Assembly (NCBI RefSeq): GCF_018977255.1
Contig: NW_024704758.1
Location: forward strand, 14,942,001-15,006,000
From: Callorhinchus milii
Lineage: Eukaryota
Direction: 5' to 3'
Length of the DNA stretch: 64,000 nt
The stretch's first letter is position 1. Every line of letters begins with the position of its first letter. Shown one piece after another: positions 2,542 through 5,370 of this stretch. The translations under genes and the position numbers were made by a program. Below the pieces are notes generated by a model, which saw only the letters and a program-made list of their open reading frames with translations, searched no databases and was not told the origin of the DNA.

Positions 2542-4273
2542 GTTTTGCTTAGCTAAAAGAAAAAAAAAATGTTAAGACTTGAATGCTCTCATTTGTTTGT
2601 TTCAACATCCTAAACGTAAGAATTCCCAGAGTTGGGGTGGGATGTATCACTGCCCACACGTGTGTTGAATAAGCATTGACCTGAGCCAGGAATTTCCTCA
2701 TACATATTATTTTACTGGGTGTGTACATACCTCAGCGCTGGCAATGCTAAGATAATTTGCTTTTGTACTGTGGCACTAAAAATAAAAATACTCTTGTTTA
2801 TATGTGACATACCTCCCAAGGAATTAGAATGTAAACTCGTGTTGCTCGTGTCGCCCATCTCAGGCGCTCTGGGATGCTACCCCGCACATGAAGGGTGCTA
2901 TATAAATGTAATTAGTTGGATTTTTGGGGGTTTGGGAGGGGGGCACTTATCAACCCAACCTGCTGCCTTGTTCTGTCCCGGTGCTTGAGGCGTCTTCCCC
3001 ATGTGAAAGGCGCTGTATACAGACGTAATTTGTTGTTGAAAGTAAACAGTTTTAGAAATAAAAAGCTGTTAATGCGTGTTCTAGAATCATGGCAGTTCTG
3101 GGTTAATTTTAAAACTCATTGTGATGTGAACAGAAGCTTAACCCCACCCCACCCACCGCTGCTCTGGAGCCCACGAGGGGAGTGGGGCGGCCACACGTCG
3201 ACTCAGCACACCAGCCACCGGCACAAGGTGGTCTGGTCAATGCCATGTTATCGGAGGGTTTGTGTCAGGGGTCAGTGAGTCCCAGTGGTTACCAGACCTG
3301 ACAGTGGCCTTAGCTGTCACTGGCTGCTTTGTTCACAAGATTGGTTTGGGTGAAAAAGGCCCATCGCTGTATCTGACCTCATCCTTTCAGATTACCCACC
3401 TGAGAGTCTTCCCATCACAGCATCGGGAGTCCCCGTGTCCTGGTCTTAGCTAACCAGTTATTGAAGTCAGCCAGGAACTCGCTCCACTGAGGTCCAGCAC
3501 TGCCTGCTCGATAAGAATCATTCTTGGATGGGAATGAGATGTTCCTTTCGGTCAGTCGCCCGGTCAAATCGAACTTACCTGTTCAACACTGGGAGCTTTC
3601 TGTTTGTAAATCATTAACCTCAGTTGCGGTTGGTGGATGAAATCAAGGTGCTCGATACAAACCGCCCTCTGGAATGTTCCCAGTGGTTGTTGCCTGTCAG
3701 GCCTGATCTCATTCTGTAGATCCTGGTGAGTTCTGGGCTGTAGGTGAGGCAGTAACCTCTGAGTTAGTAGTCCACATGCTGTACTTTGGAGATGTTTGAA
3801 GAATCCAGCAGGAGTGGGATTTACAGTGAACCTGACTGTCGTGGCCAGTTTTCAGCCTCAGTCCCAGGGAGCACCAATTTGAGACTGTTATTACTGGGGG
3901 CGGTTAACTTATGATATGGACGTCTGTACGATCCCTGTAGTTAATGGATGTAGCGTTTCAATGATTGGAACTGTTCTGTGCATCATTCCTGTCATGCAGT
4001 CTGGGGGTAACCAGCTTTAAACCATGATTGTCCCAGTTTGGAGAGACTCAAGCCTGTTTGTTGCTATTTGAGCATCTTGAGTTGCTGCTCACTTGGCCTT
4101 GTTTTCAACCTATGAAATGTTTTGGCTTTGAACGTGAAGGCAGCGTTAATGGGAGTGAGGTGGGCGGGTGGGGGACAGGTTAGGCTATGGAGATCGAGGG
4201 TGGAGTGTGTGAACTCACTTCCTTTGTATTAACCCGCGCTCTCTCTCTCTCTCTCCTCTTTGGCCACACAGGT

Positions 4274-5370
4274 ATGGCCTCACAAGTTTTGGTCTGCCCA
4301 CCACACGTTTATCAAACTCAGACAAGTGCCTTTTGTAGTGTGAAGAAACTGAAAGTAGAACCAAGCAGTTGCGTGTCCCACGACAGAGCTTTCCCTCGGA
4401 CCTATGTGAACGGCAGGAACCTCGGTATCGCTCACCCATCGCATCACGTGGTTAGCTCCTCCTTCCAGCCGAAGAGCCAGCGGGGGAGACCGTGTGGTCA
4501 GAGCTTCCTGGTGCCCGCGAGTGCGGTCGCTTTGAGCACTTCGGGGGCCAGGGCAGCGCGGGCACAGCTACAGCCTGTGGGGGTGGCAGCAGCGGAGGGA
4601 GGGAGGCCGGCGGGCAGTCTGACCTTGCTGGATAGCTACCAGAGATGCGGGCTGAAGAGGAAGAGTGAAGAGCTTGACAACCGAGGTAGCGCCATGCAGA
4701 TTGTGGACGAGCTGTCTATGGGGCCGGCGATGTTGCAGACCAATGCTGGGAACCCGGTCACTGTGGTCAACACCGCCAGCACCTCGAAGCAGAACAGCGC
4801 CAGTGGAGACGGCGAGTACCATCTCATGCAGCACGAAGTGCTGTGCTCCATGAAGAGCACTTACGAGGTCCTTGACTTCCTCGGACGTGGGACCTTTGGC
4901 CAGGTGGTCAAATGTTGGAAGAGGGGGACAAACGAGATCGTGGCCATCAAAATCCTAAAGAACCACCCCTCCTACGCCCGGCAGGGACAGATCGAGGTGA
5001 GCATCCTGGCTCGTTTGAGCAGCGAAAACGCCGATGAGTTTAACTTTGTGCGCGCCTACGAGTGCTTCCAGCACCGGAACCACACGTGCTTAGTCTTCGA
5101 GATGCTGGAACAGAACTTGTACGACTTTCTCAAGCAGAACAAGTTCAGCCCCCTGCCCCTGAAGGTGATCAGGCCCATTCTGCAGCAAGTGGCCACTGCA
5201 CTGAATAAACTGAAGAGCCTCGGCTTAATCCACGCGGACCTCAAACCGGAGAATATCATGCTGGTCGATCCCATTCGCCAGCCGTACAGAGTGAAAGTAA
5301 TCGACTTTGGGTCAGCCAGCCACGTCTCCAAAGCCGTGTGTTCCACTTACTTACAGTCACGGTACTACAG
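4274..5370 (+). CDS. HIPK3: HIPK3 exon 2, first coding exon (whole exon 4272-5370, 1099 nt): N-terminus and kinase subdomains I-VIII
   Basis: Acceptor (ct)n...cacacag|GTATGG, donor TACAG|gtgagt. [34 protein letters not shown]...RTYVNGRN is the HIPK3-type N-terminus. Kinase motifs [12 protein letters not shown] (K226), [14 protein letters not shown] and [10 protein letters not shown] (Y359). Confidence 0.97.

Follow-up and report, generated by a model that had tools for sequence, protein, structure and literature searches.

The human circle circHIPK3 consists of one exon and measures 1,099 nt (Zheng et al. 2016, PMC4823868). In chicken, circHIPK3 is resistant to RNase R and siRNAs spanning the same junction have been used (PMC6406597). 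A cow circHIPK3 has also been reported. Mouse circHipk3 reaches high levels although inverted Alus are lacking there, and the human circle is insensitive to DHX9 (PMC6487579). The last of these papers (Stagsted et al. 2019) described the AUG circRNAs, a class defined in human, mouse and fly data. HIPK2 circularises in human and mouse as well (review PMC5098259), human circHIPK2 (1084 nt, supplement of PMC4823868) being a paralogous single-exon circle of similar size. Whether circles shared between species are inherited or reinvented by young transposons is a live dispute: in PMC8516420 shared circles are held often to arise convergently, a view to which PMC6487579 is opposed.

In the openly accessible literature searched no report was found of circHIPK3 by name in cartilaginous or ray-finned fishes, and no chimaera member of the AUG circRNA class. 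Three teleost papers mention circHIPK3 only as a mammalian citation, the accessible text of a fish review cites it for chicken and cancer only (PMC8268770), and HIPK rows are absent from those supplements of PMC8516420 that were examined.

The window analysed here, a stretch of 64,000 nt, contains the HIPK3 gene of Callorhinchus milii. Its product is 100% identical to RefSeq C. milii HIPK3 and its top PDB match is HIPK3 (7O7I, 819 bits against 738 for HIPK2). The HIPK1/HIPK2-type paralogues occupy two separate loci in the C. milii genome, and the assignment as the HIPK3 orthologue held. The features that matter for what follows are these:

1..4271, plus strand: 3' part of the upstream intron, which is 24,368 nt long when counted from exon 1 and 14,279 nt when counted from a coding mini-exon, both exons lying 5' of the window.
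16..215, no strand assigned: 5' arm of the nearest pair of inverted repeats of at least 150 nt (81% over 205 nt), a possible helper of back-splicing.
4240..4271, plus strand: polypyrimidine tract and acceptor AG, which serve the back-splice as well as the linear junction with exon 1; both junction contigs of run X1 enter here.
4272..5370, plus strand: the HIPK3 AUG exon, 1099 nt, residues 1-365 plus 2 nt, the back-spliced unit and likely circHIPK3; placed by its splice sites and by a junction contig in run X1.
4326..4332, plus strand: 7-mer miR-124 seed match, orthologous to human site 1 as mutated in PMC4823868 and overlapping codons S18-A19-F20.
4336..4338, plus strand: stop met by the HIPK3 frame past the back-splice junction; a 387-aa truncated product would result, if it were ever translated.
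5371..5376, plus strand: splice donor GTGAGT, the back-splice donor; the junction contig carries 5341-5370.
5371..27254, plus strand: downstream intron of 21,884 nt, in which SINE-like repeats of either orientation are numerous.
10680..10882, no strand assigned: downstream arm of the inverted pair; 9,367 nt of intron lie between the two arms and the exon.
27255..39642, plus strand: remaining HIPK3 coding exons, residues 366-1208, placed by tblastn of the C. milii HIPK3 protein (P0004) on the window and by the acceptor.

The exon of 1099 nt opening GT-ATG that the initial annotation had proposed was confirmed by the acceptor AG at 4270-4271 and the donor at 5371. It opens at 4272, with the ATG at 4274, and consists of 365 codons plus 2 nt. 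The next exon starts at 27255, so the predicted intron of 21.9 kb measures 21,884 nt. Tyr197, Lys226 and Tyr359, numbered thus for the human protein in the initial annotation, have identical residue numbers in C. milii HIPK3 and in the chimpanzee protein (P0078), against which the alignment was made. The exon resembles that of human circHIPK3 in being the orthologous single exon, with a GT-ATG start, a donor within the kinase domain, a length of 1099 nt and long flanking introns.

Fourteen public runs contain the stretch and none of them is recorded as RNA. In four of the 14, 0.63-0.64 of its words are present, which is the share expected from the exon alone. Four runs were examined over 3900-4306, on the acceptor side. 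One of these, run X1, yielded a contig of 58 nt (depth 106.9) in which 5341-5370 is joined to 4272-4299 at the exact splice sites; runs X4, X5 and X6 gave no contigs after filtering, which counts neither way. In this contig 26 loose letters precede 4268-4299. They are 5341-5366, which occur once in 144 kb, and as 4268-4271 is identical to 5367-5370 the contig is the last 30 nt of the exon followed by its first 28 nt. The identity between the end of the intron and the end of the exon runs to 6 letters.

A second contig from run X1 (2316 nt, depth 16 as a mean over the 2316 nt) joins the exon-1 donor to the same acceptor, from which it follows that the run contains spliced RNA; its library type is unrecorded and its status as RNA is a guess. 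Both junction contigs end at 4299, like two paths merging in an assembly graph. An intronic contig in the same run has a depth of 2.5; each depth is a single figure for a contig of assembled data and no measure of expression, so that the value at the junction only fails to suggest a rare event. In one of the four runs examined, then, the canonical donor of the AUG exon is joined head-to-tail to the exon's own canonical acceptor, and the back-splice junction for which a search of RNA-seq data had been proposed was found in this form.

The initial annotation had called the AUG exon exon 2 and had found the 4.2 kb before it free of coding exons. Within the window the latter statement stands. When the 80 kb 5' of the window was also examined for HIPK3 exons, a 96-nt coding exon with a polypyrimidine acceptor was found 14,279 nt 5' of the AUG exon (L012:9897-9992, 10,103 to 10,008 nt before the window). 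It encodes MFIRMDHF-G and is used in RefSeq isoform X1 of C. milii HIPK3. Of 9 shark and ray proteins, 5 have exactly the 9-residue peptide of the chimaera, MFIRMDHFG. The first exon of the gene ends 24,368 nt 5' of the AUG exon, and a contig of run X1 joins it straight to 4272. This first exon is GC-rich (72%, L013:about 9520-9903), and the 2316-nt contig reaches well upstream of it. The ATG at 4274 is the start of isoform X2, and isoform X1 starts 9 codons earlier, in the upstream exon. The AUG exon is number 2 or number 3 by isoform: the label holds for the isoform that joins exon 1 to the AUG exon and fails for isoform X1, in which it is exon 3. Chicken circHIPK3, which has the same back-splice junction, is likewise said to come from exon 3, matching the numbering of isoform X1.

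In all 56 proteins with an N-terminal extension the residue before the Met is Gly (53) or Cys (3), as a split codon xGT requires. This supports a conserved GT-ATG acceptor, with a coding reason for it, and it allows the length of the exon to be inferred from proteins as 3n+4. The upstream peptides of ray-finned fishes and mammals differ from that of the chimaera and end in the same split codon. The upstream peptides of sawshark, mammals and sturgeon gave no convincing match in the 84 kb 5' of the AUG exon.

A second cartilaginous fish appears to make the same circle. A bamboo-shark liver circRNA named 6-1096 has been described (1096 nt, 6 junction reads, RT-PCR with divergent primers; PMC7759564). 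Its host gene is unnamed in the accessible text, where "hipk" has no matches. The four primers used for it translate to NGRNL, RPILQQ, ILARLS and NSANGD, in HIPK3 order. Three of the four are closer to the C. milii HIPK3 exon (3-5 mismatches) than to either paralogue (6-9), and the remaining one is closer to a paralogue (3 mismatches against 4). When the primers were placed on a congeneric protein (P0009) the predicted divergent product was 907 bp, as reported, and the convergent product was 779 bp against the 777 bp reported, 2 nt off. The length of 1096 nt is that predicted for 7 of the 9 elasmobranch proteins among the matches listed. By primers and lengths, and not by that species' own genome, 6-1096 appears to be circHIPK3. 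Its primers, its length and the size of its divergent product fit a shark HIPK3 AUG exon; it is unlike C. milii in measuring 1096 nt and in being a proposed let-7a binder (PMC7759564), the C. milii exon having no let-7 seed match. A published shark circRNA thus gains a host gene, likely HIPK3.

The head-to-tail contig in C. milii, the bamboo-shark circRNA, and the circles of chicken and mammals together make it the parsimonious and likely reading, as the initial annotation had proposed, that the circle had arisen by the time of the jawed vertebrates' last common ancestor, and it is likely that the circle exists in cartilaginous fishes. We put at roughly 0.7 the probability of the reading as a whole: the AUG exon, joined donor to acceptor in one run, is likely circular, likely the orthologue of circHIPK3, and has probably come down from the first jawed vertebrates by way of the gene's architecture and not of a fixed length. 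With the same junction present in a chimaera and probably in a shark, the best-studied human circle would move from the amniotes to the base of the jawed vertebrates. That base lies about 450 million years back.

The length of the exon was followed through database proteins, not genomes, and the teleost figures assume that no intron was gained. Of 2250 matches in a first protein search the best 120 were taken and 116 could be parsed. Among these the inferred length was 1099 nt in 50, 1096 in 47 and 1102 in 7; the rest were 1093 and 1129 nt (three each), 1087 (two), 1081, 1120 and 1126 (one each) and one fused model. A length of 1102 nt was obtained for coelacanth, tuatara and turtles and, outside this set, for axolotl. 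Not species but database proteins were counted, among which isoforms recur and high-scoring matches are over-represented. The nine elasmobranch proteins among the matches listed gave, besides the seven of 1096 nt, one each of 1099 and 1087 nt, and a 363-aa segment gave 1093 nt for chicken, against 1099 nt in C. milii. A second search added marsupials (1078 nt, 4 proteins), bichirs (1126-1132 nt), bowfin (1147 nt) and gar (1177 nt), and 35 of 36 NCBI teleost models gave 1189-1327 nt. Outside the ray-finned fishes the inferred length thus stays within 1078-1102 nt, and overall it covers about 1078-1327 nt.

Left out of this summary were two unparsed insect proteins (P0014, P0016), a fused sturgeon protein (P0002, 644 aa), a truncated alligator protein (P0206), a partial loach protein (P0176) and 40 teleost models found only in UniRef, of which 39 have 335-378 aa and one 420 aa and which would widen the range. 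In the UniRef-only teleost HIPK3 models (among P0163-P0244) this exon is 40-85 residues shorter than in NCBI models of the same species; for Denticeps they have 349-359 aa against 421 in NCBI. These short models are likely artefacts of gene modelling, with spurious introns.

The kinase part has 179 aa in 189 of the 190 parsed proteins and the N-terminal part 160-262 aa, so that all the drift is N-terminal. The tie of C. milii with chimpanzee at 365 aa arises because a +2 gap near residue 58 is offset by two single gaps near 88-92. A constraint on exon length, as the initial annotation had suggested, is not borne out: the lengths vary over about 1078-1327 nt across gnathostome HIPK3 proteins, the outcome that the initial annotation had named as refuting it, and on this range and the cancelling gaps a constraint at 1099 nt was rejected. 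Circles have been reported from exons of other lengths, namely 1096 nt in the bamboo shark and an inferred 1093 nt in chicken. On the lengths inferred from proteins, the exact tie at 1099 nt is a coincidence within the narrow band found outside the ray-finned fishes, and not beyond chance. The match to the human length proved a good lead, though for a mistaken reason, and exact length is not what is conserved. Protein coding fixes both ends of the exon: at the 5' end the reading frame of the upstream exons continues through the first GT, and at the 3' end the exon stops within the kinase domain. Between them the length drifts by whole codons in a loose N-terminal linker.

The C. milii exon shares with the AUG circRNA class an annotated start codon inside the probable circle and very long flanking introns (24,368 or 14,279 nt on the 5' side, 21,884 nt on the 3' side). 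Repeat matches between the two introns across the exon number 53 inverted, 20 of them of at least 100 nt, and 41 direct. The nearest long inverted pair has a duplex energy of -246 kcal/mol against -66 for shuffles. Its distance is unremarkable, a pair being as near in 38% of 228 background windows (background median 10.9 kb, 9.4 kb here), and as many inverted pairs as the three found within 10 kb occur in 18% of background windows. Close inverted SINEs were thus rejected as a special feature of the locus, being no closer than background; pairing of inverted repeats is possible and is not enriched. C. milii differs from human in being without Alu and in having its nearest long pair about 9.4 kb apart, whereas the human Alus lie within 2.3 kb.

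Following the AUG-circRNA model of PMC6487579, slow linear splicing of the long introns would let the donor at 5370 join its own acceptor at 4271, and inverted SINE-like pairs would be optional helpers. Each back-splice would cost one pre-mRNA its start codon and the first part of its kinase. In human cells deletion of the upstream intron gave less circle and did not raise the mRNA (PMC4823868), which argues against a strong brake.

At the RNA level little of what is described for the human circle was recovered. The human IGF2BP2 11-mer (PMC11265796) has no match in the C. milii exon at up to 2 mismatches, indicating that this motif is not ancestral. Thirteen of the 18 human miRNA sites could be reconstructed from the sequences of mutant primers, with the wild-type letters inferred, and were set against the C. 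milii exon by eye. Four of the 13 are matched in C. milii (miR-124 site 1, miR-152 site 2, miR-338 sites 2 and 3), one is weakened (miR-338 site 1) and eight are lost; the four matched sites all lie within conserved coding stretches. The 7-mer at 4326..4332 is a candidate miR-124 site. A miR-124 match lies at the same codons in all three C. milii HIPK paralogues. By synonymous resampling its chance is about 0.095 in each, the three not being independent, and it is best regarded as a weak hint. No extra conservation between the paralogues was seen at the 5' end of the exon (codon identity 10/19 and 10/18 in codons 1-31 against 79/161 and 74/158 in the kinase part).

Translation of the circle was considered and rejected, as no evidence for it was found and AUG circles are untranslated according to PMC6487579. 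The hypothetical product of 387 aa would end before the APE motif, and those of the paralogues would have 393 and 383 aa.

The junction contig itself could come from exon repetition, that is, from a tandem duplication in the sampled animal, from trans-splicing or from template switching by reverse transcriptase. Exon repetition yields the same junction (PMC6487579), a single run shows it and does so as a contig, and the intron and the exon end in the same 6 letters. Such an origin is nevertheless highly improbable: the exon is in single copy in the assembly, the joint falls exactly at both splice sites, its depth is far above that of the intronic contig, and RNase R has validated the same junction in chicken and human, with a matching circle reported in a second cartilaginous fish. 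Unlike the human circle, that of C. milii is a probable one, known from sequence data. If it is accepted as real, its age may still be doubted, since according to PMC8516420 most circles shared among mammals are convergent. Young inverted SINEs (Alu in primates, other SINEs in chimaeras) could have entered the long introns and given rise to the circle independently in each lineage, a proposal with which the inhibition of human circularisation on deletion of a downstream Alu (PMC4823868), the 53 inverted matches and the stable duplex of the nearest long pair are all consistent. Against it, the identical single-exon junction is found in chimaera, likely shark, bird and mammals, the mouse circle forms without inverted Alus and the human one is insensitive to DHX9 (PMC6487579), and in C. 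milii the nearest long pair spans a distance near the background median, with direct matches nearly as common as inverted ones. Independent origins therefore seem unlikely.

Inheritance through gene architecture also has to be set against inheritance of an ancient functional RNA under selection of its own, a miRNA sponge or protein scaffold whose size and motifs are constrained. The kept miR-124 site 1, present in all three C. milii paralogues, the narrow band of lengths outside the ray-finned fishes and the high depth of the junction contig are what such an RNA might leave. It would not be expected to have 1189-1327 nt in 35 teleost NCBI models, to reach its 365-aa tie by cancelling gaps, or to have lost the IGF2BP2 11-mer and 8 of 13 miRNA sites, nor is identity between the paralogues raised at the 5' end; moreover, no sponge effect was found in human cells (PMC11265796). 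We regard selection on the RNA as very unlikely. A bolder form of the preferred reading, in which circHIPK3 is among the oldest traceable vertebrate circles (older than Alu, and shared by chimaera, shark, bird and mammals), rivals the linear junction, derives from a single HIPK exon predating the vertebrate genome duplications and owes its retention to selection, whether for braking the kinase mRNA or for partnering miR-124, is conceivable but unlikely. For the dispute between inheritance and reinvention the locus would serve as a test case, with different repeats, different lengths, human motifs lost and the same circle.

The paralogous exons in C. milii have the same boundaries and measure 1090 nt (L002:1499-2588) and 1093 nt (L003:1499-2591). 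We take these loci to be HIPK2-like and HIPK1-like, names partly backed by searches. Judged by their exon structure, both are candidates for circles of their own.

Some observations on neighbouring sequence may be added. About 61-68 kb before the window, on the minus strand and head-to-head with HIPK3, lie long ORFs (L017) that are presumably exons of a JNK-interacting protein (MAPK8IP1-like). Long low-complexity or tandem-repeat tracts, several with runs of N, occupy 28576-29205, 32788-33504 and 44584-50879, in HIPK3 introns and 3' of the gene. The exon at 36436-36789 (residues 762-879) contains short internal repeats, with ASDL twice and an EDIVNACCEE-like element twice, which look lineage-specific.
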